The translations under genes and the position numbers were made by a program. The notes under the pieces are model-generated. The model was not told where the DNA came from. It worked only from the letters and a program-made list of their open reading frames with translations, and searched no databases. DNA of 64,000 nucleotides from IMG/VR virus record IMGVR_UViG_3300021600_000005, positions 1 through 64,000 of that record. One strand, given 5' to 3'. This stretch comes from a virus. Shown piece by piece: positions 83 through 53,944 of the stretch; the first letter of the stretch is position 1; each line of letters opens with the position of its first letter.

Positions 83-784
83 ATGAAAAGATTAATTATA
101 ACAGAGGAAGAAAAGATAAGTATAAAAGGTTTATATGAACAAAAGGCTTTATTAAATATTTTAAAGGGACTTGGTAAAAACCTTGGTTTGGGGTTTGAAA
201 AAAAAGTTGGACTTGGGGTATCAAAACAAATTGCAAAATCCCCAACTAAAATAAAATTAAAACCGGTATTAGGTTTGGGTAAGGAACATATAGTATATGA
301 ATCTGCAATATTCCCTAATAAAATAATTAAAGTTGAATTAACACCAGGTACTATCAATAAGTGGTATACTATTTTTAACAATAGACCTGATATTTTTCCA
401 AAGATATATAAGACCATACAATTGGTTGATAAGGAAGGTAAAAAATTAACTGGTGTTGTTATGGAAAAATTAAACACTTCAAAATTTACAAAGTTGTGGT
501 ATGAGATTGAAGATGAAATGTATCTATTCTATAAAAACTCACCAACCTTAGATAAAGAAGGTTCATTGGAGGGGATTGTTAAATATATCAAAGAACCTAA
601 GGTTAAAAAACAATGGGAAGAACTTTTAATATATGTAAAGAAAGAAAAACCTGAGTTAAGTAAAAGTATTGATGAGTTTTCAAAAATGGTGAATGAGTTA
701 TATAAGATTAAAACAAATCCGGATATTAGAAAATATAATTTTGGTTATGACAATAACGGCGTTTTAAAATGTTTGGATATATAA
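83..784 (+). CDS. Protein-kinase-fold protein (Ser/Thr or APH-like kinase) with IITE leader
   Basis: Motifs in kinase order: Gly-rich LGLGKEHIVY, IIKV lysine, GVVMEKL hinge, DIRKYN catalytic loop, LKCLDI (DFG-equivalent). Confidence 0.6.
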   Translation: MKRLIITEEEKISIKGLYEQKALLNILKGLGKNLGLGFEKKVGLGVSKQIAKSPTKIKLKPVLGLGKEHIVYESAIFPNKIIKVELTPGTINKWYTIFNNRPDIFPKIYKTIQLVDKEGKKLTGVVMEKLNTSKFTKLWYEIEDEMYLFYKNSPTLDKEGSLEGIVKYIKEPKVKKQWEELLIYVKKEKPELSKSIDEFSKMVNELYKIKTNPDIRKYNFGYDNNGVLKCLDI

Positions 785-800
785 AAATGACATGTCTCCC

Positions 801-848
801 GGTCCAAACTCCCTTCGGTCGTGGTCAATCCCCCCGCCCCCTTTTTTT
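801..848. repeat. Intergenic C-rich motif GGTCCAAAC...GGTCGTRRTCAATCYCCCC...TTTTTT, copy 1
   Basis: Near-identical copies at 5183-5212 and 7654-7698. Confidence 0.7.
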
Positions 849-927
849 GGAATATGAAATATGAAAAAATTTTAATTCTTAACTATTGAACTTTAATGGT
901 AATTTATTATTTTTATAATAAAAAAAT

Positions 928-2250
928 ATGTCATTAAACTTAAAACATTACGATTTTATTGAGATTGGTACTTCAGATTTTGACACATTAATTGGGGACT
1001 CAAATGATGACACGGTTGGTATTAGTATTGAACCGATAAAATATTATATTAACAGATTACCCAATAAACAGAATGTAATAAAAGTTCAAGCTGCTTTATC
1101 TACAGAAGATGGTGAGGTTGATGTCTACTATATTGAGGATTGGAAAATAGAAAAAAATAATTTACCTTGGTGGGTTAGAGGTAGTAATTCAATTAATAAT
1201 GCCCACCCTTTCGTAATTAAAGAATTAGGTGAAGAATTATATAATAGTTTGGTTACCATAGAAAAAGTACCAACAATTAGTTGGGGAACATTAATTGACA
1301 CTTACGGTGTTGAGTCAATAGGTTATTTAAAAATTGACACTGAAGGACACGACCATATTATTTTTAGGGATTTTTTGAACTATTGTGAAAAACATTCATT
1401 TCCAATTCCAAGTAAGATAACATTAGAGTATCACGATGGGGTTTCAAATAAAATTGAGATTGATAAATTAATTTCGGAGTTATCCGGATATCACATTACC
1501 AATCACAATAGTGATATTACTTTAATTAAACCTCAAATTCCAAGAATAATTCATCAAACATTTAAAACAAATAATTTACCAACTGAATTAAATGTGGTTG
1601 TTAAAAGATTACAAGATATGAACCCCACTTTTGAATACCGATATTATGACGATGAGGGTTGTATTGAATTTATTAAAGAAAATTACGATGAGGAAACATT
1701 AAATCTTTATTTAAGTATCAATTCAATTTATGGGGCAGCAAGAGCAGATTTCTTTAGATATCTTTTAATGTACAAGGTTGGTGGTGTCTATTTAGATATT
1801 AAGAGTTGTACTACAATTCCATTGGAAGAAACGTTATTACCTACCGATGAATATTTGTTAACTCATTGGGAAGGTTTAGATTGGGCTGACGAATTAAATT
1901 ATCAATTTGGGGAATTTCAAAATTGGCATATCATTTGTCGACCTAAACATCCGTTCTTACATCGTGTTATTGAAATCGTTAAAGAAAATATTAAAAATTA
2001 TATTGATGGGGATAGTAAATTAGATGTGTTAAGAGTTACCGGACCTATTGCATATAGTCGAGGTATTCTTGAATTATTATCAACCCATAAAACAAACCAA
2101 TTTAATTCTCCGGTAAGAGAATTTTTATTGGAAAATGAGATTGGGTTAGGGTATGTTCAAACCTCAACACATCACTATCATATTTATGATAAATCATTCT
2201 CAAAAGATGAACCTTTAATTATAAAAGACGTTTTAGGTAAAACGGAGTAG
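928..2250 (+). CDS. FkbM-family methyltransferase fused to GT32-like (DXD) glycosyltransferase
   Basis: N-terminal FIEIG..., IEP, LKIDTEGHD; C-terminal IPRIIHQT, RADFFRY..GGVYLD, TGP. Confidence 0.8.
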   Translation: MSLNLKHYDFIEIGTSDFDTLIGDSNDDTVGISIEPIKYYINRLPNKQNVIKVQAALSTEDGEVDVYYIEDWKIEKNNLPWWVRGSNSINNAHPFVIKELGEELYNSLVTIEKVPTISWGTLIDTYGVESIGYLKIDTEGHDHIIFRDFLNYCEKHSFPIPSKITLEYHDGVSNKIEIDKLISELSGYHITNHNSDITLIKPQIPRIIHQTFKTNNLPTELNVVVKRLQDMNPTFEYRYYDDEGCIEFIKENYDEETLNLYLSINSIYGAARADFFRYLLMYKVGGVYLDIKSCTTIPLEETLLPTDEYLLTHWEGLDWADELNYQFGEFQNWHIICRPKHPFLHRVIEIVKENIKNYIDGDSKLDVLRVTGPIAYSRGILELLSTHKTNQFNSPVREFLLENEIGLGYVQTSTHHYHIYDKSFSKDEPLIIKDVLGKTE

Positions 2251-2300
2251 TCTTTTGATTTAATCCCCCCTTTTTTTGGGATTAAAGATATTTATTTGAT

Positions 2301-2669
2301 ATGAGAATTATTATTACGGAGAACAAGTTGGTGAATATGGTTAACAACACATTGGGGTATGACTTGTCGGATAAGATTGACATGATTACTGATTACTGGG
2401 ATGCCGATGTTCTTATACGCCGTATGTTTGAAAATAAAACAACATTTACCAAACTATTAAATCATTGGGGACCCATGTTTTGGATTAGTACCCCCAAGGA
2501 TGGTAGATGGTTGGCACAACAACGTGAAGGTCGTAAATGGTTTATTTTTAAAGGTGGTTGGGACCGGCGTTGGGGTATTGATGAACACCAATTATTATCT
2601 TATATGGGTCTTGGTATGTTTGGGGTGCCGCTTGATACTATTATTGATAACTTTGTAAAAGAAAAATAA
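2301..2669 (+). CDS. Hypothetical protein with IITE leader
   Basis: ORF; TATTTAT at 2289-2295; starts MRIIITEN. Confidence 0.6.
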   Translation: MRIIITENKLVNMVNNTLGYDLSDKIDMITDYWDADVLIRRMFENKTTFTKLLNHWGPMFWISTPKDGRWLAQQREGRKWFIFKGGWDRRWGIDEHQLLSYMGLGMFGVPLDTIIDNFVKEK

Positions 2670-2716
2670 AATGACACCCTCTTCAATAGAAGGAGGTTTT
2701 ATATACGTGAATAACA

Positions 2717-3484
2717 ATGACACTACAAGAAAACATACAAAGAATAAGGGAAATGATGATTTCCGAGGAGATGGTCCAATCGGATGCATGGAAATCAATC
2801 AAGAAAACATTAGACATTCTTAAAGAGAAAAAAAAGGTTTTAATTTTAAGTTGTTCCAATAGATATAATTTTGATGAAAAAAATATAGACATACCAAAGT
2901 CTAAGATGATAGCCATGTACCTTAATGATGAGTTGGGGGATAAGTCAGTATTGATTGATGTTCCAGAACTTAATATTGTTCCTTGTGAGGGTAATGTATC
3001 AAAAAAAGATGGTAATAGTTGTGGATTACTAAAATCAGCTCTTAAAGACAAGAAAAAGAACCCATCCGGAGACCATAGATGTTGGGCAAGTATTAACAAT
3101 CCAAAGGATGAGTTATGGAAGATATCCAAAGAGTTATTTGAATCGGATGCGGTTATATTCTTTAGTTCAATTAGATGGGGACAAACCAATATGTTCTACC
3201 AAAACTTAATTGAAAGATTAAATTGGATTGAAAATAGACACACAACATTGGGGGAATCAAATATAGTAAAAGACATTGAGACTGGGTTCATTTGTGTTGG
3301 TCAGAATTGGAATGGGGAGAACGTCACTAAAATACAAAAGGATGTTCATAAGTTCTACGGATTCAAACCAAACGATGATTTATATTGGAACTGGCAGTAT
3401 ACCAAAAATGTGAATGATGAAACTCAAAAATCATATAAGGATTCATATAAGAAGTTTATTAAAGATACTAAATTACCTAAATAA
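2717..3484 (+). CDS. Flavodoxin-like NAD(P)H-dependent FMN reductase family protein with LQE leader
   Basis: VLILSCSNR, PCEGNVS...C, DELWKISKELFESDAVIFFSSIRWG, LIERL. Confidence 0.7.
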   Translation: MTLQENIQRIREMMISEEMVQSDAWKSIKKTLDILKEKKKVLILSCSNRYNFDEKNIDIPKSKMIAMYLNDELGDKSVLIDVPELNIVPCEGNVSKKDGNSCGLLKSALKDKKKNPSGDHRCWASINNPKDELWKISKELFESDAVIFFSSIRWGQTNMFYQNLIERLNWIENRHTTLGESNIVKDIETGFICVGQNWNGENVTKIQKDVHKFYGFKPNDDLYWNWQYTKNVNDETQKSYKDSYKKFIKDTKLPK

Positions 3485-3562
3485 TAATTTTCCATTCACT
3501 ATTGTTTATTTTTCTTTTTCTAAAGAATGTAAGTGATATATTTATTATTAAACAATTTTAAT

Positions 3563-4141
3563 ATGGGAAAGATTATTAAACTTACAGAAGGAGATTTGAT
3601 TAAATTAATAAAACGTGTTCTTGAGGAAGGGGAAATCACTGAGAAGTGTTGGTCTGGTTATAAACAAAAAGGGATGAAGACCATGTATGGAAAACGATAT
3701 CCAAATTGTGTAAAGAATGAATCTGAAGATGTGGAAACAAATGAAGCGTCAAGTCCTGCTCAACAATCTGCCATCGCCATCAATATGAAAAAGAAGGGAT
3801 TTAAACCCAAAAATGAAAGTTTATATGAGGACGAATATGGTTCGGTTGAATTGGTTAACTATAGTGAAGAATTTATCAATGAGGCGGTATATCATGGACG
3901 TAAGGTTCAACTTGGAAAGATTATGCAAGGCGACATAAAAAAGTCCAAGGTGTATGTTAAAAATGATAAGGGTAAAGTTGTTAAGGTTAACTTTGGGTTT
4001 GGTGGAAAATCTGCTCATGGTAAACGAATGGTCATTAAAAAAAATAATCCCGCTAGACGTAAATCTTTTAGAGCTCGTATGAAATGTGATACTCCAGGTC
4101 CAAGATGGAAACCAAGATATTGGGCATGTCGAACTTGGTAA
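3563..4141 (+). CDS. Conserved basic phage protein (CWxGY..PNCV and RRKSFRARxxC modules)
   Basis: ATG at 3563 after TATTTAT; MGKIIKLTEGDL leader; motifs recalled from large myophage hypothetical proteins. Confidence 0.6.
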   Translation: MGKIIKLTEGDLIKLIKRVLEEGEITEKCWSGYKQKGMKTMYGKRYPNCVKNESEDVETNEASSPAQQSAIAINMKKKGFKPKNESLYEDEYGSVELVNYSEEFINEAVYHGRKVQLGKIMQGDIKKSKVYVKNDKGKVVKVNFGFGGKSAHGKRMVIKKNNPARRKSFRARMKCDTPGPRWKPRYWACRTW

Positions 4142-4150
4142 TAAATTATT

Positions 4151-4181
4151 AACCCCATCTCTAATAAAGGTGGGGTTTTTT
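4151..4181 (+). terminator. Intrinsic terminator (identical copy at 4605-4635)
   Basis: AACCCCATCT-CTAATAA-AGGTGGGGTT followed by a T tract. Confidence 0.8.
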
Positions 4182-4215
4182 GTTTTATGTTATATTTATA
4201 TATAAAATATATATT

Positions 4216-4584
4216 ATGAAACATTTATTAAATAATTTAACGGAGCAAGAAAAAAATTCAATCCGTGAACAACATACAGGGGGAATGAAAGTGAGTAATT
4301 ACAGATTTAAGGAATTATTAGAAAATAAATTGGGTAACTCTAAACCATTGGTTGAAAAATTTTACGATGAGGATGACACCGATTTTGAGGATGAAGAACT
4401 TTATAGTGGAGCTCCTGAAAGACTAGTTAAACATATGGATAGTGGTAAAATTGTTGGTACACATAAACATGGTGTAGGTTATACTCCTAATGAACATGGA
4501 ATACGTTTGGGACATTCAAGTCACCCCACTTCAATTCCTAATTTTACAAAATTTGACGATGAGGACGATTACGATTTTGAGTAA
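4216..4584 (+). CDS. Hypothetical acidic protein with LTEQEKNSIREQH leader
   Basis: ORF; TATTTAT at 4193. Confidence 0.6.
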   Translation: MKHLLNNLTEQEKNSIREQHTGGMKVSNYRFKELLENKLGNSKPLVEKFYDEDDTDFEDEELYSGAPERLVKHMDSGKIVGTHKHGVGYTPNEHGIRLGHSSHPTSIPNFTKFDDEDDYDFE

Positions 4585-4604
4585 TTAACAACCTTGTACC
4601 TATT

Positions 4605-4635
4605 AACCCCATCTCTAATAAAGGTGGGGTTTTTT
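4605..4635 (+). terminator. Intrinsic terminator, duplicate of 4151-4181
   Basis: Same hairpin plus T tract. Confidence 0.8.
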
Positions 4636-4652
4636 ATTTAAATAATATTTCT

Positions 4653-4660
4653 TATATTTG
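4653..4660 (+). promoter_or_regulatory. Bacteroidetes-type -7 promoter element (TAnnTTTG)
   Basis: TATATTTG 4 nt before ATG 4665. Confidence 0.6.
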
Positions 4661-4664
4661 TATT

Positions 4665-5132
4665 ATGATATCTGAAAAATTAAAATCAATTATATTTGAT
4701 AAGTTATATCAGGATTTAAAACATTGTGAGATAATTTCTTACGATAAAAGTATATTTTTTATTGATAGGGATAATAAGTATTGGTATTTTGAATATGAAA
4801 AGGGTGGGACATTATGGTGGAGATACACATTCTTTAATGTTTTTTTTCAATTATTTTCTATAACATATAAGGAATTCCAACCCGTTCTTGGTGAGTGGGT
4901 GGAAGAGGTATTAAATTGTAAGGTATTAACAACAACCAGAAGCCACCTAAACGCTTCCAAATGGATGGAAGAGGTATTAAATTGTAAGGTATTAACAACC
5001 ATAAAAACGTGGCACAACCATTCTATTATGGTGGAAGAGGTATTAAATTGTAAGGTATTAACAACCAAAGGAACCCCCTACCTTGAAAAACATTTGGAAG
5101 ATGTGTTAAATTATAATGAATCTAAAACTTAA
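4665..5132 (+). CDS. Small protein whose C-terminus reads through a CRISPR-like array (WVEEVLNCKVLTT family)
   Basis: Homologous to the MKINITKTQ paralogues; 22-aa periodic C-terminus. Confidence 0.75.
   Translation: MISEKLKSIIFDKLYQDLKHCEIISYDKSIFFIDRDNKYWYFEYEKGGTLWWRYTFFNVFFQLFSITYKEFQPVLGEWVEEVLNCKVLTTTRSHLNASKWMEEVLNCKVLTTIKTWHNHSIMVEEVLNCKVLTTKGTPYLEKHLEDVLNYNESKT
4898..5128. CRISPR. Gene-embedded CRISPR-like mini-array: three 36-nt repeats, one degenerate repeat, spacers of 30/30/27 nt
   Basis: G(G/A)TGGAAGAGGTATTAAATTGTAAGGTATTAACAAC at 4898-4933, 4964-4999, 5030-5065; degenerate copy 5093-5128; spacers mutually unrelated. Confidence 0.6.
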
Positions 5133-5271
5133 GAATCGTTTTGTATAATAGCCTTATTTATTAGGTAATTGATATCTCGCACGGTCGTAATCAATCCCCC
5201 ACCCCTTTTTTTAAAGATTGTATATTATTCATTTGAAAAAGAATGTAAGTAATGTATTTATAGATATTATT

Positions 5272-5703
5272 ATGAACCTACAAGAACAAATATCAAAAAT
5301 ACAATCAATGATGGGGAAGAAAAAAGATTCTTCCGTTAAGGTTTTTAATTACAAAAACTACACACTTATTCTGTCTAAAAATCCTTGTGATATATTTACA
5401 CATTTTAAAGTAGAAGATTTACACGGACTAAACTATCAAAAATGTTTGAAACATAAAAATACAAAAGAAAGCGCATATATTGCGGGGCTCACAAATAAAT
5501 CACCAAAAACAAAAAAAGATTTTTTATTTTTAAACTTAAATAGATTAGGTAAAGATGAAGAAAAGATGGGGCTAATTATGCACGAGACAATGCACTTATC
5601 ATTAGAGTTACACAAACATGATGTTAATAAAAAAGAAGAAGAAATAATTACTTGGGCAGAAAAAGAGGCTTATAAAATTTATAATATTATAAAAAAATTA
5701 TGA
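5272..5703 (+). CDS. HExxH putative zinc metallopeptidase with LQE leader
   Basis: LIMHETMH...EEE; ATG 5272 after TATTTAT 5255. Confidence 0.55.
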   Translation: MNLQEQISKIQSMMGKKKDSSVKVFNYKNYTLILSKNPCDIFTHFKVEDLHGLNYQKCLKHKNTKESAYIAGLTNKSPKTKKDFLFLNLNRLGKDEEKMGLIMHETMHLSLELHKHDVNKKEEEIITWAEKEAYKIYNIIKKL

Positions 5704-6359
5704 ACCTACAAGAGAACATACAAAGGATTAAATCCATGATGGGATTACTTGTTGAAGAACAACAACGGTCCTATGAAAGTAAACCAATTATTTTGATTGG
5801 ACCTCAAGGAACGGGTAAATCAACTACCGCAAAGGCTTTATCTAAAAAGTTAGGAATTCCATTAGTTACGACTGATATGTCGATGATTGATAAAAAGTAT
5901 GTGAATTTATGTAAAGACGAGCCAGGTGTAGAAGTAAAAATTAAAGAACATCCAACATTAGGAACATACAATGAATCAAATGACGAATATGTTTTTTGTG
6001 TATTAAATAAATTAATGGATGAATATGGTGATAAACAAATTGTTTTAGATGTAGGTGGAACCCACGCATATGCTAGTGAAAAACTATCCTCCGATATTAT
6101 AAAACTATATAGTCAATCACCTAATTTATTTGTGTTTAATGTAAGTGGTGATGAAGATGAGACTTATGAGTTTTTAAAAAAGAGACGTGAAGGTAGAGGT
6201 GAAGAAACTAAAGGTGAGGATGATAAAAAATTCAGAGACACGATTGATAAGTTGAAGAATTATTATAAAGGAACTCAAAAAATATCAATCATAAAGAAAG
6301 ATAAATCTGAAAAAACAACTGATGAATTAGTTGATGAAATAATGACAAAATTATCTTAA
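5700..6359 (+). CDS. Shikimate/NMP-kinase-like P-loop protein
   Basis: IILIGPQGTGKSTTAKALSKKLG..TD; VLDVGGT; KRR lid. Confidence 0.7.
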   Translation: MNLQENIQRIKSMMGLLVEEQQRSYESKPIILIGPQGTGKSTTAKALSKKLGIPLVTTDMSMIDKKYVNLCKDEPGVEVKIKEHPTLGTYNESNDEYVFCVLNKLMDEYGDKQIVLDVGGTHAYASEKLSSDIIKLYSQSPNLFVFNVSGDEDETYEFLKKRREGRGEETKGEDDKKFRDTIDKLKNYYKGTQKISIIKKDKSEKTTDELVDEIMTKLS

Positions 6360-6360
6360 A

Positions 6361-7009
6361 ATGAACCTACAAGAAACCATAAGAAGAATATTAAGGGAAG
6401 AAAGAAAACCATCTAATTTTTTAAGAAGAAGAGTGGAAATGTTGGATTATGAAGTCGAATCTAATTTTTATGAAATTGAACATAGAATAGAGACGTACAG
6501 TGGTATTGATATATGTATAATATATAAAAACGGGGTAAGCTTATTTGAAACAATTATGGAGAATTCAATTAGTAATATGTATTATAATCATTATTCTAAT
6601 ATAGATGATAATTATGATAATTCAAAAGAATGGGCCCATGAATATCTTGATATGGTTAATTATATTAGAAACAAATACCAAGACAAAATAATAAAGTATT
6701 ACGAAGATAATTGTCCCTCTCCAAAATTAAAGTAATATGAAATATATCATAACTGAATCTCAAAATAATAAATGGTGGTTATTACGAAGACATGATATTG
6801 TAAATCATTCTTTTAAAAAAGCCATTTCAACTATCAATCCTTGTGGTGAAAAATCATTTGATACGTTTAAATATAAAATTTATCGAGTTTTTAATTTTTA
6901 TATGAGTATGATGGATAATGAAATTTCTGATTATGATGAAGTAAAATTTGTGTTTATTGAAATGTTTAATGATAAGTTAACTGAGATATATGATAATAAA
7001 GAATGTTAG
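6361..7009 (+). CDS. Two small paralogous hypothetical proteins (6361-6735, 6737-7009), LRRR..PC family
   Basis: ORFs with LQE/ITE leaders, LRR motif and terminal Y...C. Confidence 0.55.
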
Positions 7010-7060
7010 AATCTGTTAATTAATTGTGAGTTTGATATATTTATATAATAAATATATATT

Positions 7061-7558
7061 ATGAAAAAAATTATAAGATTAACTGAATCCGATTTAATGA
7101 GATTGGTTAAAAGAGTTATTAATGAACAAATTAAAACCAGTAATGGACCATCAAAGCCTACTGATTCTTACAAAGGGAAAACGGTTAACTTTTATGCAGA
7201 TAATGATAATAAAATGTTTTTTAAAACTGGTGAAATTATTGATGTTTATTCGAAAAGAAATGGTGAAATTAGGTTGGAAATTAATTTTAAAAATTTAAAA
7301 CCTGGCACGCCAACCAGTGAATTTGTGGGAGATACAAGACTTAAATTTAATTGCGCTTTTTCGAACAATGGTTTTGGGGAAGTTAGCACAACAGGCGTTT
7401 TTGGAAAACTTAATCCAAAAATTGCTTATTCGAACTCTTTATCAGATAAATTAAAGAAAGACTTTTGTATGACAAATAAATCCGGAGTACAAGTTCCAAA
7501 GGCAGACTTTGCTTCTACAAACGATTCTCAAGATGATTCTCAAGATGATTTAAGTTAG
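7061..7558 (+). CDS. Hypothetical protein with MKKIIRLTESDL leader
   Basis: First 23 aa nearly identical to 9284-9826; remainder unrelated. Confidence 0.65.
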   Translation: MKKIIRLTESDLMRLVKRVINEQIKTSNGPSKPTDSYKGKTVNFYADNDNKMFFKTGEIIDVYSKRNGEIRLEINFKNLKPGTPTSEFVGDTRLKFNCAFSNNGFGEVSTTGVFGKLNPKIAYSNSLSDKLKKDFCMTNKSGVQVPKADFASTNDSQDDSQDDLS

Positions 7559-7733
7559 TAGATTAAAATAACAACTAAAGAATATTATTAAACATTATTA
7601 CCCACCCCATAAAGGTGGGTTTTTGTTTTATATTGTATTTTGTTAACTTGTATGGTCCAAACCCCCCCTTTGGTCGTAATCAATCTCCCCCCTTTTTTCC
7701 AAACTTTTTCTGTTGCGTTTATATTTATGTTAT

Positions 7734-8687
7734 ATGCAAAGATTTATTATAACTGAAGAGGATAAAAGAAACATACTTGGAATGTATGGTTTAATTAATG
7801 AACAAAACTCAGAACCCCCAATATGTTCAAATACAGGGTGTAAAGGAACTTATACAGGTCCTGAATTTGAAAATGATAATGATATAGCCCATGATTATTC
7901 AAATGTAATTACTAAATCCGTGGCGGCTAAATTAAAAGAACTTTACAAAAGTGGAGATTACGTTAAAGTAAACTTTGACGGAATTAAATTATCTACAAAA
8001 GGAATGGGTACGGGAAATGTGGTCTACGAAGTAGAAATACCTTTTGAAAGTGTTAATAATAAATGTGATGCAAGGACAGGATTTGCTCATGTGGGTGGAT
8101 GGGGACATCCCGGAGCCGGAGTTAACAAAAGAAAAGAAGAGATTTTTAATGATACTACAAAAGATTCTGTTAGAACAAATCCTGTGGTAGGAACAATTAA
8201 TGATATGGAATTCTCAAAAAAAACATCAACAGATGAAGGTCTTGTCGAATATTGGATTCAATGGAAACATTCTTCATTACAAAGTGATTGTGGTCAAAAA
8301 ACTACAAACGGAACATCAGAAAAAGAAAAAGTAACAACAAGTACAGATGAAAAAAAATCAGGTGCTAATTTTAGAAGTGATAGTTTAAGTGGGTTAATAA
8401 ATCAAATTAACCAAGGAGAATTGGTTGATAGTAAAACAAACGGATTTGATTTAAGTAAACCAGTTACTATAGATTTCAAAGAGCATATATATATGTTACA
8501 CGCTCCTGGAGGTAAAGATGGGTTCTTCACTTTAAAATTAGCGTTGAACATTTCTAAGGAACATGAATTAGGACAGTTCCCATCTAAAAAATCTTTAGAA
8601 AACCAAGGTTATACAGTTTGGGATGATGGAACATTCCAACTAAAAGGAGAAGGTGTAAGAGATTGGGCGTTAATGTATAAAAAATAA
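7734..8687 (+). CDS. Hypothetical protein with IITEEDK leader
   Basis: ATG 7734 after TATTTAT 7722. Confidence 0.6.
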   Translation: MQRFIITEEDKRNILGMYGLINEQNSEPPICSNTGCKGTYTGPEFENDNDIAHDYSNVITKSVAAKLKELYKSGDYVKVNFDGIKLSTKGMGTGNVVYEVEIPFESVNNKCDARTGFAHVGGWGHPGAGVNKRKEEIFNDTTKDSVRTNPVVGTINDMEFSKKTSTDEGLVEYWIQWKHSSLQSDCGQKTTNGTSEKEKVTTSTDEKKSGANFRSDSLSGLINQINQGELVDSKTNGFDLSKPVTIDFKEHIYMLHAPGGKDGFFTLKLALNISKEHELGQFPSKKSLENQGYTVWDDGTFQLKGEGVRDWALMYKK

Positions 8688-8798
8688 CCTAATAGTTTAA
8701 TCCTAGATAAAGGTGGGGTTTTTGTTTTACACTTGACAATTAAAAAAATAATTAAAAATAAATTTGGATATATTAATTTCATTTAATATCTTTACAGT

Positions 8799-9260
8799 AT
8801 GAAAAATATATCGATAACATTAATATTAGTTGTTTTATCAACTATTGGTTTTGGACAAACCCCTTTTAAAAGTTTAACAGTTCACATAGATACCACACAA
8901 TTTATGTCTTGGGAATTAGGTTTGAATTATAAAACGGCAAAAGACCAAAATAAAATAAAAAATGAAAAACTTTATCTTTTTAATCATAATATTATTGTTG
9001 ATTTAATATCCAAAACGGTAACCGTTTTTTCGGTAACTGAAAACACAGTAAACGATGTATGGAAACTTAAAAGTTTTGAAGTTTATAAAACAGGGTACTT
9101 TTTTGAATTCTGGGAAGAAGGAATTGTTCAAAATTACAAAGCGTTGATTTGTGAAAATGTAGGGGGAACCTATTCATTTATAGAACAAGACGGTTTAAAT
9201 AAAAAAACTAAAATATGTGGGGGACAATATGATAGGGATGTAAAAATTACTATAAAATAA
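8799..9260 (+). CDS. Secreted hypothetical protein
   Basis: Signal peptide MKNISITLILVVLSTIGFG-Q (Bacteroidetes Q-rule-like cleavage). Confidence 0.6.
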   Translation: MKNISITLILVVLSTIGFGQTPFKSLTVHIDTTQFMSWELGLNYKTAKDQNKIKNEKLYLFNHNIIVDLISKTVTVFSVTENTVNDVWKLKSFEVYKTGYFFEFWEEGIVQNYKALICENVGGTYSFIEQDGLNKKTKICGGQYDRDVKITIK

Positions 9261-9283
9261 AAAAGGGGAATTACATTCCTTTT

Positions 9284-9826
9284 TTATTTTGTTATTCTAG
9301 ATTGCAATAGTGTTGAATAGTATTTAAAAACATCAGAGTCAAATTTATATTTTACCAAGAAATCAACACCATTGGAAAAACTATCTAACGTATCATAGTC
9401 TGGATTATAAACACTTAAAGCATTATAATCAATTGTTTTAAGTAAATTTTTTGCTTTTTCTAAGGTTATTGGGGAGGATTCTCCTGTTATGGCGTTAAGT
9501 GTTAATAATACCTCTACGACACTGAATATTTGATTTGAGATTGTCTTTGGTTTAGTAGATAAAGACGACTTAAAATTTTCTGAGTTCTCTCCAAAAACGT
9601 TTTTTAAAAAGTCTTTATGTGAATACTTGCCAAAGTTATTGGACGGCCAAGTAAAACGGGATATTGATTCTTCATCTTTAAGTTGTGGTAACTTATAGGT
9701 TAAATCGCCAATTTCAAGCCCCTTACTTTGATTACTTAATGGTTTTACATTATCCGTTTGTTCATTAATAACTCGTCTTACTAATCTAATCAAATCAGAC
9801 TCTGTTAATCTTATAATTTTTTTCAT
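9284..9826 (-). CDS. Hypothetical protein with MKKIIRLTESDL leader
   Basis: TATTTAT on the minus strand at 9847-9853. Confidence 0.65.
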   Translation of the reverse strand: MKKIIRLTESDLIRLVRRVINEQTDNVKPLSNQSKGLEIGDLTYKLPQLKDEESISRFTWPSNNFGKYSHKDFLKNVFGENSENFKSSLSTKPKTISNQIFSVVEVLLTLNAITGESSPITLEKAKNLLKTIDYNALSVYNPDYDTLDSFSNGVDFLVKYKFDSDVFKYYSTLLQSRITK

Positions 9827-9899
9827 AATATTATTTTTAATCTATTATAAATATATGATAGAACTAAAATATATAACAATTAAAGAATATTTATATTAA

Positions 9900-10256
9900 A
9901 TGAAATACATTATTAGTGAACATAAACTTGATAAATTAATCTTTGAATTTATTGATGATTTTTTTAAAAAACATAGACAAATTATTGATTCATATATAAT
10001 GTATAATCAAAGCGGATTTTATGAGCATGAAGATTTTGAGGCTACAATTGAATATGACCATGAAGACAAAAGGTTATATATTGACAAAAACTTTGTCATG
10101 TTAATTGCTAACATGTTTGGTCTTACCCCCCAACAGTCTCAATTAAAAATTTACGATTGGTTTACAGTAACCGAAAATATTTTTCCAAAGTATATGGAGT
10201 CACCATATTTAGAAGGGTTTTGGAGACAAAATGCCCCTCGTAGGGATGGGAATTAA
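9900..10256 (+). CDS. Small paralogue (IISE leader; ..NMFGL..IYDWF family)
   Basis: Shares pattern with 11647, 15656, 19731 and the array-bearing family. Confidence 0.55.
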   Translation: MKYIISEHKLDKLIFEFIDDFFKKHRQIIDSYIMYNQSGFYEHEDFEATIEYDHEDKRLYIDKNFVMLIANMFGLTPQQSQLKIYDWFTVTENIFPKYMESPYLEGFWRQNAPRRDGN

Positions 10257-10299
10257 AGTTAATTTATCTTTTTTTTATTAATTAATGTATTTATGTGAT

Positions 10300-11595
10300 A
10301 TGAGAATATTAATTAAAGAAAACCAATATGGGTTATTATTAGAACAATTAAATATTTCTTTGAAGTATAATGATATTGTTGACGCGTCGTCAGGTCCTGG
10401 TACTGACCCGGATAAAATATTAAACGCCCTTAATGACATTAAAGACGTTAAAGAATTTAAAACTTTGTTATCTATGTTTAAAGATAAAAAAACCGGATAT
10501 AAAAGTTTTGAAGAAATGGTTAATCAAGAGTACGATAGGTTTAATTATGATGATATTGTAAAATTAAAAGATAGACTATATTCTTTAGGGGTTATAGTTT
10601 CGTTTAGAAAGGCGGAAAATAATTTTGGTCAAAATTTATTTGCGGGCAATTTTAAAATTCAAAGTTATCTGACACGTACTTCAAAAACATCAGAAATTTC
10701 TAAAAAAAACAATATTTTACATGACAAAGAGTTATATGAAAGATATATTAATACATATGAACCTTTATTATCACAAGCAAAAAAATATTGGATTGATTGG
10801 TTATCTAATCCAATTACTAAAGAAAAATTTATTAAAAATTGGTCAGATAGAAATTATAGTAGTGATGATGTTAATAACATTTTTAAAAATTATTTAAATT
10901 CACTAAATAAACTTAAATTATTTTTTTATGATAAGTCAACAAAAACCATCAACAATGTTGATATTGATGACCGTGAAAAAGGAGCTTATGCGTTTGTAGA
11001 TAAAGAGTCACCAAATAATGTTTATATTAATTGTTTCTTGAGTAAGAAAGATGATGACAAATTAGGAACAATGATTCACGAAATTCAACATTTAATTTAT
11101 TTTATACACCCATTAAATCCTGACGTTAAAGTTGGAGAGTTATTTGTTAATAAAAATACTAAAAAAATAGAACCTTTTGATTTTTTTAATAATTTTAGTA
11201 CGGTTTATAATAATAATCATAAAATGAATTATAGTTTGTCCCAAAACATTATAAACACCTCCAAAATTTATAATGTTGATTCTAAAATATTGCAAAATTT
11301 ACTTGTTGTTGCAACCAAAAATGAAAAAAACGGCCCAGGGTATTCTTGTAATGAAAATGAAAAAATGTCTAATATTAGTGCAATAAGAAAATTGTTTAAT
11401 ATTAAACCAGGACAAGACATAACAGTAAAAATGTTGACACCATATATTAAAGGTCAAAAAAAAGATTTAAATGTTTCTTGGTTATTAATTTGTTGGGCTT
11501 TAAAGGATTTCCCAGATATCTCTGAATTGGTTAATAAAATAAACCAATTGGCTTACCAAGATTTTCAAAAACAAAATAATACAAAACTTGTATAA
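10300..11595 (+). CDS. HExxH putative metallopeptidase with annexin-repeat-like N-terminal motif
   Basis: ASSGPGTDPDKIL resembles annexin GxGTDE; TMIHEIQH...Y...NEK. Confidence 0.5.
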   Translation: MRILIKENQYGLLLEQLNISLKYNDIVDASSGPGTDPDKILNALNDIKDVKEFKTLLSMFKDKKTGYKSFEEMVNQEYDRFNYDDIVKLKDRLYSLGVIVSFRKAENNFGQNLFAGNFKIQSYLTRTSKTSEISKKNNILHDKELYERYINTYEPLLSQAKKYWIDWLSNPITKEKFIKNWSDRNYSSDDVNNIFKNYLNSLNKLKLFFYDKSTKTINNVDIDDREKGAYAFVDKESPNNVYINCFLSKKDDDKLGTMIHEIQHLIYFIHPLNPDVKVGELFVNKNTKKIEPFDFFNNFSTVYNNNHKMNYSLSQNIINTSKIYNVDSKILQNLLVVATKNEKNGPGYSCNENEKMSNISAIRKLFNIKPGQDITVKMLTPYIKGQKKDLNVSWLLICWALKDFPDISELVNKINQLAYQDFQKQNNTKLV

Positions 11596-11646
11596 CTAAC
11601 TTTTGACTCAACCCCTTTTTTTTATTAATTACCATATTTATGTAAT

Positions 11647-13238
11647 ATGAAATTTATAATAACCGAATCTAGGATAGACCAAATTATTGTTAACTATTTG
11701 GATGAAAATTTTATTCCTAATTATGGTTGGGCAACTATTGATTATTATAGAAGTCAAGTTGCAAAGTGGAATAATTATAATTTTTTAATTGAGGACGATG
11801 AAGCGTATGCGTATTATAGGGAATATGATGGAAATCAAAACGTTTTGGCTGTAAACGATTGGTTAACAGATAAATTAACAGCTTTATTTGGTAATAAGTG
11901 GCCACCAGTTTTTAAAGACTGGTTTGAAGATGCTACCAGTCTTAAGGTTAAAACATTTTTATATGAAAGGGAACATTTTATTAATAACGATAACGATACA
12001 AGTTTTTCATAATTTTTAATATGATTATAAAATATTTATAAAAATGGATTTAGAACTACTAACAAAAGAACAAATAAGGGGAATTCAATTAGCTCTTAAA
12101 GCTTGTAGTAAGGAGTATCCATTTATTAAAGGATTCTTTTTAGAAAAAGATAATGTCAATTATAAAACCGTTTTATTTATTGTGTTATTAGTTGATTATG
12201 AACTTGTGTCAAAGTTTTATAATCGTGAAATAAATTACAGAGGGTATCTCAGGAATACAGACACGTATAACACATTTGGAATCCCATTTGAATGGGGGGA
12301 ACCAAGTACTAAAGAATATAAATTTAATCTTGATTTTTGGTCAAATGAAAAAAGTAAAGTTCAAGATTTATTAGAATTGTTTATAAACGCGTTACCAGAA
12401 AAATATAAATGCTCTACTGGTTCACTGAGGGTCACCATACCACATATCCAAGGGTATTGTCAAATTGGAACTCCATGTGTTGACAATAATATTGATGACG
12501 TGTATGGAAAAGTTTTTTTATTGGGGAAAGATTAATATGAAACTACGAGAATCCATAAAAAGAATAATAAGGGAAGAAAAAAATGTATCCCCAAGACTTT
12601 TGAGAAGAATTTCTGGGAATGACTTGGAACAAATTTTTATTAATTGTTATTATGAAGCATTAAAGGATGTGGTTCATGAGAAATTCTATTATGAAACCAA
12701 TAGATTGGTTCGGCTTATAAATAGGACAATAAGTTATATGATGGATGAGTTTCACCCTATGTTATATAATACAATACCTGAAGGAGAAATGTGGTATGAT
12801 GAAATACATAATGGATTAGAACGCCACTATAAAGGTCGAATAATTAATTTGTATAATAACAAGACCCCCCGTTCTGACTTTAATTATTAAACAAGAGGTA
12901 TATTTATTATCATGAACATAATAATCACAGAAAGACAAGTTAAGTTAATAATGGAGAGTTCTCCTTCAGCTAGACTTCGTAGAAGATTGTTTGACAAAAA
13001 TTTTCTTCAAGACTTTTTAGATTACGATATTTTAGAATATGAAAATCCTTGTGATTGGGATAATGTTGGAGAATTTGTTGGAGATGTTTGTGATACTCTG
13101 GCAATCCAAACTATTGATTATTTTACAGAACAAACAGGAGAAAAATTATCACCAAAAGAATCTGATTATTTTTATTATTATTGTCTTGATAACTTTGGTA
13201 AGCACATTGAAACTTTTTACAAAAAAAAATGTGCGTAA
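11647..13238 (+). CDS. Four small hypothetical proteins (11647-12012, 12044-12535, 12537-12890, 12912-13238)
   Basis: Tandem ORFs, most with ITE/LRE leaders and upstream TATTTAT. Confidence 0.55.
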
Positions 13239-23298: not shown

Positions 23299-24576
23299 TT
23301 AACTAATCAATTTTTTACTTTTTTTGTCTCTATGAAAATTAATTGTGAATCTATGGACCTCTTCTTGAATTTTTGATAAGTAAAAAAACTCCTCTGAACT
23401 TTCAATTTTAATTTCTGAACTATCACATAAATGTATTGTTTCTGATTTATGATTATTATTTTTTGATATTGATATTAAATCTATTTTATCTAACAAATTT
23501 AATCTGGTAAGAACTGTTTTACCAACGTTTAATTGACCTTTACCACCATCAATTAATATCATTGAAGGTAAGACACCCTTCTCATCTAAAAGTCTTTTTA
23601 ATCGTCTATAAATGACTTCATCAAACGATGCATAATCATCTGGGCCAACAACATTTTTTAAATTATATTTACGATAAGAACTTTTTTCAGGTAACCCATT
23701 AACAAATCTTACGGAAGCCGAAACAATACAATCACCATTATGGTGTGAATTATCAAAAGATTCTATTATCAGAGGAGTGTTTTTTAAATTTAATATTTTT
23801 TTTATATTTTTAGTTAAATTTATACTTTTTTGAATTCTTGATGGTTCTAAAAGAATTTTTATTTTTTCAAGTTCGTCAATTTTAAATTTTATTTGTAGAG
23901 CTTTTTCAAACTCAAAAGAGTCTGAGCACGATTTCATTATTTTCCAAAGATGAGTTTCTACTTTTTTATAATTAAACGTTAAAATTTCTTTTGCCAAATC
24001 ACAATTTTTTTTATAATCAAATTTATTAATTTTAGATTCGCATGGAGCCGAACATCTATTAATGTGAAATTCAAGACAAGATTTAAATTTTTTATTTTCA
24101 ATATTATTTTTAGATAAATTATAAGAACAATTCCTAAGATTCACTATTCTATGTATAGTTTCATAAACTTCATGACAAGTATTACTACTAGAAAACTCAC
24201 AGATAATTTCATTAGTCGAAGTTTTAATTGGGGTTATTTCTAATTTTGGAAAATCTCCACAAGAAAAACTAATCCCCCATTTTTTAGTTCTGTCATCTTT
24301 ACCTTTAACATTAAATTTTGGTCGATATAGTTTAATCAAATCGTCTTCAAGTAAAATCGCTTCGTTTTCGTTAATTGTACTAATAAAATCCACATCTTTA
24401 ATTCTTTCTAATAAAGCTTTTGTTTTAAGTTCGATTGGGTTTGGTCTAAAATAAGACATAACTCTATTTGGCAAATATTTTGATTTACCAACATATATTA
24501 TTTTTTCTTTTTCATCTTTAAATAAATAACAACCAGGTGTTTCTGGAATTAATGATAATTTTATTTTAAGTGACAT
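23299..24576 (-). CDS. uvrC: Excinuclease ABC subunit C (truncated, no C-terminal HhH)
   Basis: GIY-YIG (PGCYLF..IIYVGKS..RV.SYF), Cys cluster, UVR domain, ESFDNSH, DDYASF, ILIDGGKGQ, EVHRF. Confidence 0.9.
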   Translation of the reverse strand: MSLKIKLSLIPETPGCYLFKDEKEKIIYVGKSKYLPNRVMSYFRPNPIELKTKALLERIKDVDFISTINENEAILLEDDLIKLYRPKFNVKGKDDRTKKWGISFSCGDFPKLEITPIKTSTNEIICEFSSSNTCHEVYETIHRIVNLRNCSYNLSKNNIENKKFKSCLEFHINRCSAPCESKINKFDYKKNCDLAKEILTFNYKKVETHLWKIMKSCSDSFEFEKALQIKFKIDELEKIKILLEPSRIQKSINLTKNIKKILNLKNTPLIIESFDNSHHNGDCIVSASVRFVNGLPEKSSYRKYNLKNVVGPDDYASFDEVIYRRLKRLLDEKGVLPSMILIDGGKGQLNVGKTVLTRLNLLDKIDLISISKNNNHKSETIHLCDSSEIKIESSEEFFYLSKIQEEVHRFTINFHRDKKSKKLIS

Positions 24577-26634: not shown

Positions 26635-26943
26635 TTAAGGATAATTATTCATATGTAGGTATATAGTTGAGGTAGTTATATAACCCTTCAAATTTAATGT
26701 TTCCTCCACCCAGTCTTTTGTAATCGACTGAAGTTCTTTATATTCAAGTGAAAACATGGATTCTAAAAATGACCAAATTGTATCATAATCAAAATAAAAT
26801 TGTTTATTTATCCTATCTATCTGAGCAAGTCTTTTTTTATTTTTAACATAATAAGAACCAATAATTTCAACATCAGAAAACATATCGTTTAACCAATCCT
26901 TAACCAATCTTGCCCTTTGCGTTTTTGTTATGTTAATTTTCAT
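26635..26943 (-). CDS. MKINITKTQ paralogue with 36-nt repeat in its 3' end
   Basis: Repeat GGTGGAGGAAACATTAAATTTGAAGGGTTATATAAC at 26710-26675. Confidence 0.75.
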   Translation of the reverse strand: MKINITKTQRARLVKDWLNDMFSDVEIIGSYYVKNKKRLAQIDRINKQFYFDYDTIWSFLESMFSLEYKELQSITKDWVEETLNLKGYITTSTIYLHMNNYP

Positions 26944-26983
26944 TTAATATAAATACTTTAAAATTTAACGACTCTTTCACCGA

Positions 26984-27289
26984 TTATGTCCTCCATATAG
27001 TAGTATTGGGATTATAAGTAGTTTTATGGCCCTTCAAATTTAATGTTTCTTCCACCCAGTCTTCTGTAATAGCTTGCAGTTCCCTATATTCAAGTGAAAA
27101 CACGGATTCTAAAAATAACCAAATTGTATTATAATCAAACCAAAACTCCTTATTTTTTTTATCATGGAAACCAATGTTTTTTTTATTTTTAACATAATAA
27201 GACCCAAGTATTTCAGCATCAGAAAACATATCGTTTAACCAATCCTTAACCAATCTTGCCCTTTGTGTTTTTGTTATGTTAATTTTCAT
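26984..27289 (-). CDS. MKINITKTQ paralogue with repeat-spacer-repeat 3' end
   Basis: Repeat 27056-27021, 39-nt spacer, degenerate repeat 26981-26946 carrying TATTTAT for the next gene. Confidence 0.75.
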   Translation of the reverse strand: MKINITKTQRARLVKDWLNDMFSDAEILGSYYVKNKKNIGFHDKKNKEFWFDYNTIWLFLESVFSLEYRELQAITEDWVEETLNLKGHKTTYNPNTTIWRT

Positions 27290-39886: not shown

Positions 39887-39930
39887 TGACTGGTCAGAAG
39901 AAACATTAAATTTTAAGGTATTTATATAAA

Positions 39931-40245
39931 ATGAAAATTAACATAACTAAAACACAAAGAGCAAGATTGGTTAAGGATTGGTTAAACGATATGTTTTCTG
40001 GTGCTGAAATAAAAAATACTGATTATGGTAATTCTTATTATATTAAAAATGAAAAAAACCTTGCTTTTCAGAATAAAAAAAATAAAGATTTTCGGTTTGA
40101 TTACGACCTAATTTGGTCATTTTTAGAATCCATTTTTTCACTTGAATATGAAGAACTGCAATCTATCACAAAAGACTGGTTGGACGAGACATTAAATTTG
40201 AAGGGATATACAACATCTTATTTACGCAACTTATCTTGGACATAG
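39931..40245 (+). CDS. MKINITKTQ paralogue 1
   Basis: Ends WLDETLNLKGYTT plus spacer-encoded SYLRNLSWT. Confidence 0.75.
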   Translation: MKINITKTQRARLVKDWLNDMFSGAEIKNTDYGNSYYIKNEKNLAFQNKKNKDFRFDYDLIWSFLESIFSLEYEELQSITKDWLDETLNLKGYTTSYLRNLSWT

Positions 40246-40282
40246 TTGGGCGAGACATTAAATTTGAAGGTATTTATATAAA

Positions 40283-40582
40283 ATGAAAATTAACATAACT
40301 AAAACACAAAGGGCAAGATTGGTTAAGGATTGGTTAAACGATATGTTTTCTGATACTGAAATAATTGATTCTTATTATGTTAAAAATGGAAAAAAAATTG
40401 CTTTTCGGGAGAAAGAAAATAAAGAGTTTTGGTTTGATTATGACTTAATTTGGTCATTTTTAGAATCCATGTTTTCACTTAAATATAAAGAACTGCAAGC
40501 TATTACAGAAGACTGGGTGGATGAAACATTAAATTTTAGGGGTTATACAACTTCGCCTCACATGTATCTCGAACAACGTTAG
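40283..40582 (+). CDS. MKINITKTQ paralogue 2
   Basis: Ends WVDETLNFRGYTT plus SPHMYLEQR. Confidence 0.75.
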   Translation: MKINITKTQRARLVKDWLNDMFSDTEIIDSYYVKNGKKIAFREKENKEFWFDYDLIWSFLESMFSLKYKELQAITEDWVDETLNFRGYTTSPHMYLEQR

Positions 40583-40619
40583 GTGGATGAAACATTAAAT
40601 TTGAAAGTAATTATATAAA

Positions 40620-40925
40620 ATGAAAATTAACATAACAAAAACACAAAGAGCAAGATTGGTTAAGGAATGGTTAAACGATATGTTTTCTGATGTTGAAATT
40701 ATTGGTTCTTTTGATAATAGAGGAGTGACTTATAGTAAAAACGGAGAAAATATTGCTTTCCAGGATAAAAAAGATAAAGACTTTTGGTTTGATTATGATA
40801 TAATTTGGTTATTTTTAGAATCTATGTTTTCGCTCGAATATGAAGAACTGCAATCCATTACAGAAGACTGGTTGGAAAAAACATTAAATTTGAAAGGTTA
40901 TAGAACGTCAGGGGCTCCAGTGTAA
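40620..40925 (+). CDS. MKINITKTQ paralogue 3
   Basis: Ends WLEKTLNLKGYRT plus SGAPV. Confidence 0.75.
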   Translation: MKINITKTQRARLVKEWLNDMFSDVEIIGSFDNRGVTYSKNGENIAFQDKKDKDFWFDYDIIWLFLESMFSLEYEELQSITEDWLEKTLNLKGYRTSGAPV

Positions 40926-41084
40926 TTAAACACATTTGTTGGATGAGACATTAAATTTAAGGGACAAACAAGTATATTAACTGACATTATGTCAGTTTTT
41001 TTATGCTTGGTATAATTTTTAATATGTGGGGTTTGTGCTTGACACATTAAAATTAAAAATATATATTTTAATAAAAAATTATTT

Positions 41085-48781: not shown

Positions 48782-48853
48782 GCCCCCGTAGGTAAAGGGA
48801 TATACCAAAAATTTTCTAAATTTTCGTTTCTGGTTCGAGTCCAGACGGGGGTA
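48782..48853 (+). tRNA. tRNA-Arg(UCU)
   Basis: GCCCCCG/CGGGGGT acceptor stem; AAAAT-TTTCTAA-ATTTT anticodon arm; TCTGG-TTCGAGT-CCAGA T-arm; CCA not encoded. Confidence 0.85.
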
Positions 48854-49003
48854 CAAAAAATAAGTTTAAAATAAATTTGGTGGTTTTAAATAAAATGACT
48901 AAATTTGTATTGTGGTTGAGAAATCAACATAATTGAGACCGAATTAACTCAATTAGGGGTGAAAAAGAAAACGATTTAGATACTAAGTTCTCCCCCACAT
49001 TTT

Positions 49004-51497: not shown

Positions 51498-51568
51498 AGT
51501 CAGGTGGCGGAATGGTAGACGCAGGTATCTCAAGATATGATTACAAGGTTCGATTCCTGTTCTGATTA
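51498..51568 (+). tRNA. Degenerate tRNA-Leu-like element
   Basis: Leu-type D-arm GCGGAATGGTAGACGC; T-loop GGTTCGATTCC; acceptor AGTCAGG/TCTGATT; anticodon arm irregular; no long variable arm. Confidence 0.55.
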
Positions 51569-53601: not shown

Positions 53602-53901
53602 TTTGGTTTTTAATATAAAATGATTACATTTGTAGAACTTTGATAAAGTTTAATGTATTTATAAAACACGTAAAATTTATTAAAAAAAGATTTGACAGTT
53701 TAAAAAAAATGTCTTATTTTTGTAAAAGAATTGATAGTTTTTAATGTATTTGTAAGACATAAAAAAATATTAAAAAAAGATTTGGTAAATCAAAAAACTT
53801 TACCTAACTTTGTAAAAGAATTGATAGTTTTTAATGTGTTTGTAAAACATAAAAAAAATTAAAAAAAGATTTGGTAAATTAAAAAAAAATACCTAACTTT
53901 G
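53602..53901 (+). promoter_or_regulatory. Four tandem ~90-bp units, each a Bacteroidetes promoter
   Basis: TTTG/TAnnTTTG pairs at 53602/53625, 53691/53715, 53781/53805, 53870/53894. Confidence 0.75.
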
Positions 53902-53944
53902 TAAAAGATATCAGAAACGTCTGATTGTGTTCTTTGAAATATTA

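Follow-up and report, generated by a model that had tools for sequence, protein, structure and literature searches.

The nearest described counterparts of the locus studied here are the type VI-B CRISPR arrays of Flavobacterium columnare. Type VI-B repeats are 36 nt long, begin with GUUG and end with CAAC, and have a defined hairpin with a poly-U loop; the spacers between them measure 30 nt and the crRNA 66 nt. In F. columnare, the VI-B array has no cas1 or cas2 and is filled in trans by the Cas1-Cas2 of the type II-C system, with spacers taken about evenly from phage and host; the II-C and VI-B repeats are both 36 bp long and share a leader-distal GTTGT (PMC8092290). CRISPR-type elements on phage genomes are also already known, in the form of mini-arrays and solitary repeats (PMC11656645; PMC10651486); the repeats of the described viral mini-arrays are identical to those of the host, and their spacers mostly target related viruses. 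According to the prevailing view, CRISPR arrays are non-coding and translations of them are database artefacts. The phage array reported here, in contrast, forms the reading frame of a conserved gene family on which selection appears to be visible, and no description of an array serving as a gene's reading frame, with selection on that frame, was found in the literature searched.

The window, that is, the whole stretch of DNA analysed, consists of 64,000 nucleotides and corresponds to bases 1 to 64,000 of the 90,168-bp IMG/VR record IMGVR_UViG_3300021600_000005, which is about 30% complete and has a GC content of 0.28. The record encodes a T4-type terminase, a gp20 portal protein, ThyA and an endolysin. 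It also codes for a DnaK/Hsp70 (41085-42956), a ClpB-like double AAA ATPase (58459-60522, minus strand) and a UvrC-like GIY-YIG nuclease (23302-24576, minus strand), and contains a full-length GOLLD RNA (54397-54806, plus strand; Rfam RF02032, 306.8 bits) with a 90-nt tandem repeat upstream of it (53649-53908), a phage tmRNA (55703-56095, minus strand; RF00023, 98.6 bits), a tRNA-Arg(TCT) (48782-48854) and a weak tRNA (51498-51568). Because of the T4-type terminase, the gp20 portal and these other genes and RNAs, we regard the record as a fragment of a T4-like jumbo phage. Many unrelated small ORFs (83-12012, and elsewhere) open with shared, leader-like N-terminal motifs: MK.IITES..., MKKIIRLTESDL.RLV.RVINEQ and MNLQE.I.RI..MMG. 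The array locus itself occurs in no fewer than 14 DNA runs of lake or freshwater origin, which represent 11 or more studies; the phage lineage carrying it is common in lakes.

The array is the 3' part of an ORF of 155 amino acids at 4665-5132 (plus strand), whose product combines a folded N-terminal domain with a translated array. The gene body (4665-4897, 78 codons) lies on what would be the 'leader' side of the array; it encodes an alpha-beta4-alpha-alpha domain, is nearly invariant in eight loci and is 31% identical to five paralogs. It is followed by repeat 1 (4898-4933), which is gene-proximal and codes for the final part of the last helix, (W)VEEVLNCKVLTT, and then by spacer 1 (4934-4963; 30 nt, GC 0.47, peptide TRSHLNASK), repeat 2 (4964-4999), spacer 2 (5000-5029; 30 nt, peptide IKTWHNHSI), which is also present in the ortholog P0108, and repeat 3 (5030-5065). 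The trailer spacer at 5066-5092, with the peptide KGTPYLEK, is common to all freshwater arrays; it measures 27 nt (or 30 nt if extended to 5095, the terminal repeat then being 3 nt shorter). A decayed terminal repeat (5093-5128) and the stop codon (5130-5132) close the ORF, and this last stretch (5093-5132) is identical in seven loci. All these elements lie on the plus strand. The three 36-nt repeats are identical over 34 to 36 nt, position 2 being G, A and G, respectively, and their 33-nt core, GGAAGAGGTATTAAATTGTAAGGTATTAACAAC, occurs in three exact copies at 4901, 4967 and 5033 (0 expected, from 100 shuffles). Successive repeats lie 66, 66 and 63 nt apart, each distance being divisible by three. 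This anatomy (three repeats, spacers of 30, 30 and 27 nt that are unrelated to one another, a decayed repeat at the stop and an in-frame 66-nt period) had been described accurately, down to the three peptides, in an earlier sequence-only reading.

An AF2 model of the ORF translation predicts residues 1-86 to be folded (pLDDT 70-91), with the last helix of the alpha-beta4-alpha-alpha domain finishing within repeat 1, and the array-encoded residues 87-155 to be disordered. The protein belongs to no named family in Pfam, PHROGs or the protein atlas, and a fold search revealed no related fold (top Z 4.9, within noise). An intrinsic terminator hairpin, present in two 97% identical copies (4147-4185 and 4601-4639), ends two consecutive genes, and its second copy lies just upstream of the ORF; the ORF itself is followed by no predicted terminator before the next genes.

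A profile search yielded 549 relatives of the protein, and the orthologs of ORF 4665-5132 measure 155, 177, 199/200, 221 or 243 residues, in steps of 22. Scanning metagenomes with the repeat DNA gave eleven loci, eight of them with arrays, so that nine arrays could be compared when the window was included. All nine follow a strict 66-nt period (units of 36 + 30 nt) and differ by whole units. The order of spacers is shared: it reads 1-2-3 in the window and 9-10-11-12-13-14-3 in L013, L014 and L021; L016, L019 and L020 lack spacer 10, and L015 reads 9-3. New units adjoin the gene body (P0116 versus P0114, P0099 versus P0104, P0011 (other subfamily)), the repeats near the gene body are identical, and those on the trailer side are decayed. 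One DNA run contains an extra, new 30-nt spacer flanked by two canonical repeats. A contig from an RNA library spans a spacer, a repeat and the next spacer, these being assembled contigs in which RNA ends are not shown and DNA carry-over is possible. Among the 14 distinct spacers, in-register identity is 0.26, and their GC content is 0.42, against 0.28 for the genome.

Homologues thus differ by 66-nt units that are gained at one end with exact duplication of the repeat, which is the polarised growth that the sequence-only reading had proposed to look for, and its main claim, a CRISPR-type array in frame within the C-terminus of a protein, is borne out by these whole-unit dynamics. Among the signs of an ordinary protein repeat, it had also named alignable spacers and synonymous divergence among repeats: the spacers of the arrays do not align (identity 0.26), and synonymous divergence of the repeats was found only in the distant locus L009. 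Judged by these comparisons, the array of ORF 4665-5132 is one that behaves as a CRISPR array, and not as a protein tandem repeat.

The record holds six arrays in all, the other five belonging to paralogs of about 100 residues each, 31% identical to the product of ORF 4665-5132 and located at 39931-40925 (plus strand) and 26635-27289 (minus strand). On the plus strand, a solitary decayed repeat (39893-39928) precedes paralog B1 (39931-40280, 104 residues), which has a repeat at 40179-40214, a spacer ending in the stop at 40215-40244 and a second repeat at 40245-40280. In paralog B2 (40283-40617), repeat, spacer and second repeat lie at 40516-40551, 40552-40581 and 40582-40617, and in B3 (40620-40973) a 31-nt spacer separates repeats at 40871-40906 and 40938-40973. 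On the minus strand, paralog C1 (26946-27289) has repeats at 27056-27021 and 26981-26946 around a 39-nt spacer, and C2 (26613-26943) a repeat at 26710-26675 followed by a tail and a second, partly decayed repeat. Every paralog closes with a conserved segment, W-(V/L)-(D/E)-E-T-L-N-L-K-G, and the DNA encoding it reappears 63 to 75 nt downstream, past an unrelated stretch that holds the stop. Both repeat copies of a unit carry the same private variants, such as GGTGGATGAA in B2. In the five paralogs the stop usually falls within the first spacer; translation through the array is therefore not general to the family. More distantly, the same repeat pair, 65 nt apart, is seen in a relative with 32% identity that is encoded by a complete phage genome of 309 kb, and relatives of the B and C types combine bodies of 62 to 88% identity with over 35 tails unrelated to one another.

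Several of the downstream repeat copies (40245-40280, 40582-40617, 39893-39928 and, on the minus strand, 26981-26946) end in GTATTTATATAAA immediately before the next ATG. The TAAATTTG within these copies agrees with the -7 promoter box of Bacteroidota, TAnnTTTG, and the copies may act as promoter for the gene that follows. Array-like stretches bearing repeats are also present in two related jumbo-phage records (G003:C1:4078-4237 and G004:C1:212767-212923), so that several arrays per genome seem usual.

The question arises as to which type of CRISPR repeat these sequences resemble. We compared them with the repeats of F. columnare (sequences from PMC5395568). Against the VI-B repeat, in the same orientation, the phage repeats match at 20 to 24 of 36 positions without gaps (24 for repeats A and B1), and B1 reaches 27 with one indel pair; z-scores are 5.3 to 7.3, and none of 500 shuffles attained the observed score. 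We saw no likeness to the II-C repeat of F. columnare, and only a weak or marginal one to the V-A repeat. Of the two array types to which the 36/30 geometry had been linked beforehand, II-C and VI-B, the second is thus retained, on statistical grounds (24 to 27 of 36), and likeness to the II-C repeat is not. The ends read GTTG...CAAC in B1 and GGTG...CAAC in A, and the leader-distal GTTGT motif closes the A, B1 and B2 repeats. The repeats of the paralogs differ from one another by about 30%, yet all carry insertions.

The hairpin of VI-B repeats, in contrast, is missing from the phage repeat, in which the GCCC arm is replaced: predicted folding energies are 0 to -2.3 kcal/mol on both strands, no better than those of shuffled sequences. 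The ends and the length being kept and the hairpin lost, the repeat would retain what an integrase might read, and not what Cas13b is known to need. The absence of the VI-B hairpin and the unstructured repeat also leave unsupported the earlier suggestion of an mRNA that could serve at the same time as precursor of a crRNA or decoy. No CRISPR direct repeat of Rfam matches the sequence, no tracr-like anti-repeat longer than 14 nt occurs in the 90 kb, and no ORF of the 90-kb record is large enough for an adjacent cas13b (none exceeds 688 residues). The A-type and B-type repeat cores had no match in IMG/VR, and a pattern scan of 185,579 species for a bacterial array with the phage repeat returned 14 single chance matches and no array; no cas locus of a host came to light either. 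These comparisons are best explained by a phage repeat that has arisen from a Flavobacterium type VI-B repeat or imitates one.

As regards the source of the spacers, the sequence-only reading had proposed a search for protospacers and a shared PAM, and the outcome is mixed. For the three spacers of the window, neither a protospacer nor a PAM emerged: 401 Flavobacterium genomes gave only AT-rich matches straddling junctions, at a noise level about tenfold above the nominal E, and 391 Flavobacteriales genomes contained no source. When the arrays were compared with 50,697 phage records (BLASTN), matches were at chance level (E of at least 0.1); exact 20- to 23-mers of spacers 9 and 1 had no match in IMG/VR, and five related viral records showed no match limited to a spacer. 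Spacer 11, on the other hand, found in the sister arrays L013 to L021, has counterparts in the rpoB gene of 33 of 386 Flavobacterium genomes; these coincide exactly with the limits of the spacer and agree with it at 25 to 27 of 30 positions, and its other matches in the 386 genomes number only about eight and are scattered. The site is assigned to rpoB by Pfam (motif ...GLARMARTIR...), and species vary there at third codon positions. With respect to the best-matching genome (27 of 30), spacer 11 shows two synonymous changes and one Ala to Ser replacement; it is antisense to rpoB. By this pattern of variation, spacer 11 is one more allele of Flavobacterium rpoB. Since no match with three mismatches or fewer was found in 401 other Flavobacteriaceae genomes, we place its source in an unsampled bacterium close to Flavobacterium, which is presumably the phage host. 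The flank of the rpoB protospacer is without the TTTANNNNN motif of F. columnare, a single case that proves nothing.

The arrays were collected by DNA and not by ORF, so that the spacer sample is not biased towards open frames. Depletion of in-frame stops, which had been suggested as a further point to look at, is found in the spacers: none of the 14 contains a stop in the frame of the ORF, against 7 and 9 in the other two sense frames and 3, 4 and 6 in the antisense frames, that is, 21 to 64% in each other frame. With the rate of the other two sense frames, 0 of 14 would be expected with a probability of about 7e-6, and with the rate of the five other frames taken together, 6e-4. Moreover, SNPs within spacers are synonymous rather than non-synonymous by 6:1 in the ORF frame, and by 0:7 and 1:6 in control frames; this bias rests on five polymorphic sites (four of five synonymous, four at third positions, two triallelic; p about 0.045 by sites). 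Variants of old repeats are mostly non-synonymous (1:10), which fits poorly with the constant part of the tail mattering as protein. Taken together, the stops and the spacer SNPs suggest that the array is translated under selection, as it appears to be from these counts.

How could such an array be generated and maintained? We consider it probable that an array derived from type VI-B sits on a phage gene, has been extended with captured DNA by a Cas1-Cas2-type integrase, and has been kept open and translated. The T4-like jumbo phage would have as its host a lake bacterium resembling Flavobacterium, and the 3' end of ORF 4665-5132 would be a genuine CRISPR-type array, whose 36-nt repeat doubles as the code for the last helix of a small folded domain. 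An integrase equipped with a ruler would insert new units at the gene-proximal repeat, duplicating that repeat exactly, and the inserted DNA would be a captured 30-bp fragment, for which the host chromosome would be one source. As 36 + 30 nt amount to 22 codons, each insertion would add 12 constant and 10 new residues, resulting in a disordered, modular tail. Selection would then purge units with in-frame stops and conserve the captured peptides. Purging of stops together with conservation of peptides favours the translated tail, and not a crRNA, as the entity that would be maintained.

As for the use of such a tail, the phage might exploit host spacer capture to generate protein sequence, 30-bp fragments being turned into 10-residue cassettes in the tails of small proteins and the useful ones kept by selection. 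We propose this tentatively, as a possibility to be entertained; that the tail would be 'diversified' for a function, as the sequence-only reading put it, is something that we infer.

The same array, filled in the same way, could instead be selected at the DNA or RNA level, as a decoy soaking up the host Cas1-Cas2 or as a repeat-mimic RNA directed against Cas13b, its translation being incidental. The frame would then be open only because a premature stop leaves hundreds of bases untranslated and causes a polar (Rho-type) loss of the downstream genes. Such selection would agree with the presence of six arrays in the record, with the lack of a predicted terminator between the ORF and the downstream genes, and with stops that are tolerated in the single-spacer paralogs, where about 40 nt separate them from the next start, and avoided only in the long array. 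It would also agree with the free change of old repeats at the protein level and with the retention of VI-B-like ends but not of the hairpin that a working crRNA has, and phage repeat-mimic RNAs are known (PMC10651486; PMC11656645). The synonymous bias of SNPs within spacers is not predicted by it, however, and binding to Cas13b is made less likely by the missing hairpin. We regard selection at this level as the main alternative but as rather unlikely, and return to an array that is translated and kept as such.

Such an array would need an integrase. No cas gene had been noticed in the window, which holds for the 90-kb record as a whole: cas genes are lacking there, with no ORF above the 688 residues mentioned, no integrase domain was found among its larger ORFs, and a Pfam search detected neither Cas1 nor Cas2, be it in the record or in its four relatives, of which two are complete. 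Since cas1 and cas2 were not found in the phage records and one spacer originates in the host rpoB, an integrase of the host accounts for the insertions most economically. We infer that it is most likely a host type II-C Cas1-Cas2, acting in trans, that inserts the units. For the earlier idea of a Cas1-Cas2-like integrase inserting spacers into a coding repeat, whole-unit gain, the rpoB spacer and the phage records without cas1 or cas2 all speak in favour, and the naming of the enzyme is where it becomes conjectural.

An integrase encoded by the phage is conceivable, because only about 30% of its genome is in hand. Units might then be inserted by machinery of the phage itself, be it such an integrase that has escaped recognition or recombination between members of the family when phages co-infect a cell, without the host Cas1-Cas2. 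The repeats of the paralogs, all with insertions and diverging by about 30%, are indeed much to ask of one host integrase, each pair of repeats has its private variants in common, and about 70% of the genome is unseen. We nevertheless hold this to be improbable: Cas1, Cas2 and integrase domains were not found among the larger ORFs or in the two complete relatives, recombination shuffles units and cannot create exact 30-nt pieces of host rpoB, and the likeness to a VI-B repeat of host type would be left unexplained. The host enzyme therefore remains our preferred agent.

A distant orthologous locus, L009 (2950-3654 of a 97.7-kb viral contig), encodes a 234-residue ortholog whose repeats are 73 to 84% identical, with synonymous divergence included, and spaced by 66, 66, 117 and 63 nt. 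By its sequence it looks like an old, inactive array that is retained as protein. Repeats diverged to this extent, synonymous sites included, resemble those of a normal protein, and one could imagine for the array of ORF 4665-5132 an ordinary tandem repeat, with a conserved part homogenised by gene conversion and fast-diverging linkers. This is very improbable, as the spacers are unalignable and shifted in GC, the arrays grow at one end by entire units, the repeat is CRISPR-like, and a host rpoB spacer with exact 30-nt limits largely refutes it. Equally hard to credit is that the long ORF is an annotation artefact, a small gene followed by a non-coding phage CRISPR array that is open by chance: spurious proteins, the 'spaced-repeat proteins' of databases, are known to come from translated arrays (PMC7673337) and a 66-nt period by itself preserves any frame, but stops are missing only in the ORF frame (0 of 14, against 7 and 9), the arrays were found by DNA, the spacer SNPs are synonymous in that same frame, and the first repeat encodes part of the last helix of the folded domain.

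If the host Cas1-Cas2 does write into phage genes, the adaptation machinery would act on invader genomes too, and the outcome would be heritable phage variation, possibly a decoy for immunisation, or a new route of protein diversification. Should the tails be true cassette generators, they would be a capture-based counterpart of diversity-generating retroelements (DGRs) and the first case of CRISPR adaptation writing protein. Flavobacterium hosts with II-C and VI-B systems are culturable and genetically tractable, so that the case is testable.

With the VI-B arrays of F. columnare (PMC8092290; repeats in PMC5395568), the phage array shares the 36/30-nt units, a repeat identical at 24 to 27 of 36 positions, the GTTG...ACAAC ends, the leader-distal GTTGT, growth at the leader end, a decayed terminal repeat, a locus devoid of adaptation genes, and, in the sister arrays, a spacer from the host chromosome. 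It differs in being phage-borne with no cas13b nearby, in its unstructured repeat without the hairpin arm, and in that its 'leader' is a protein-coding gene with which the array is in frame and stop-free. Like the viral mini-arrays and single repeat units that act as RNA anti-CRISPRs (PMC11656645; PMC10651486), the arrays lack Cas genes, lie on viral genomes and would depend on host CRISPR components, and five paralogs have one spacer each. In contrast to these, no identical host repeat turned up in the scan of 185,579 species, no spacer matched a related phage, one spacer comes from the host rpoB, and the arrays reach at least seven units and are coding. Spurious translated CRISPR arrays, which adjoin cas genes in bacterial and archaeal genomes and are considered artefacts, likewise yield predicted proteins in which constant peptides alternate with variable ones of a fixed length (PMC7673337). 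The phage frame differs from those cases in its continuity with a conserved folded domain, its frame-specific depletion of stops and its synonymous SNP bias.

In DGRs, a reverse transcriptase rewrites the adenine positions of an existing variable repeat. A DGR-type origin was dropped, the spacers being wholly unrelated and not adenine-altered. The resemblance is one of functional analogy only, in that a dedicated nucleic-acid mechanism would vary the C-terminal part of a phage protein; in contrast to DGRs, whole 10-residue cassettes of captured DNA would be added here.
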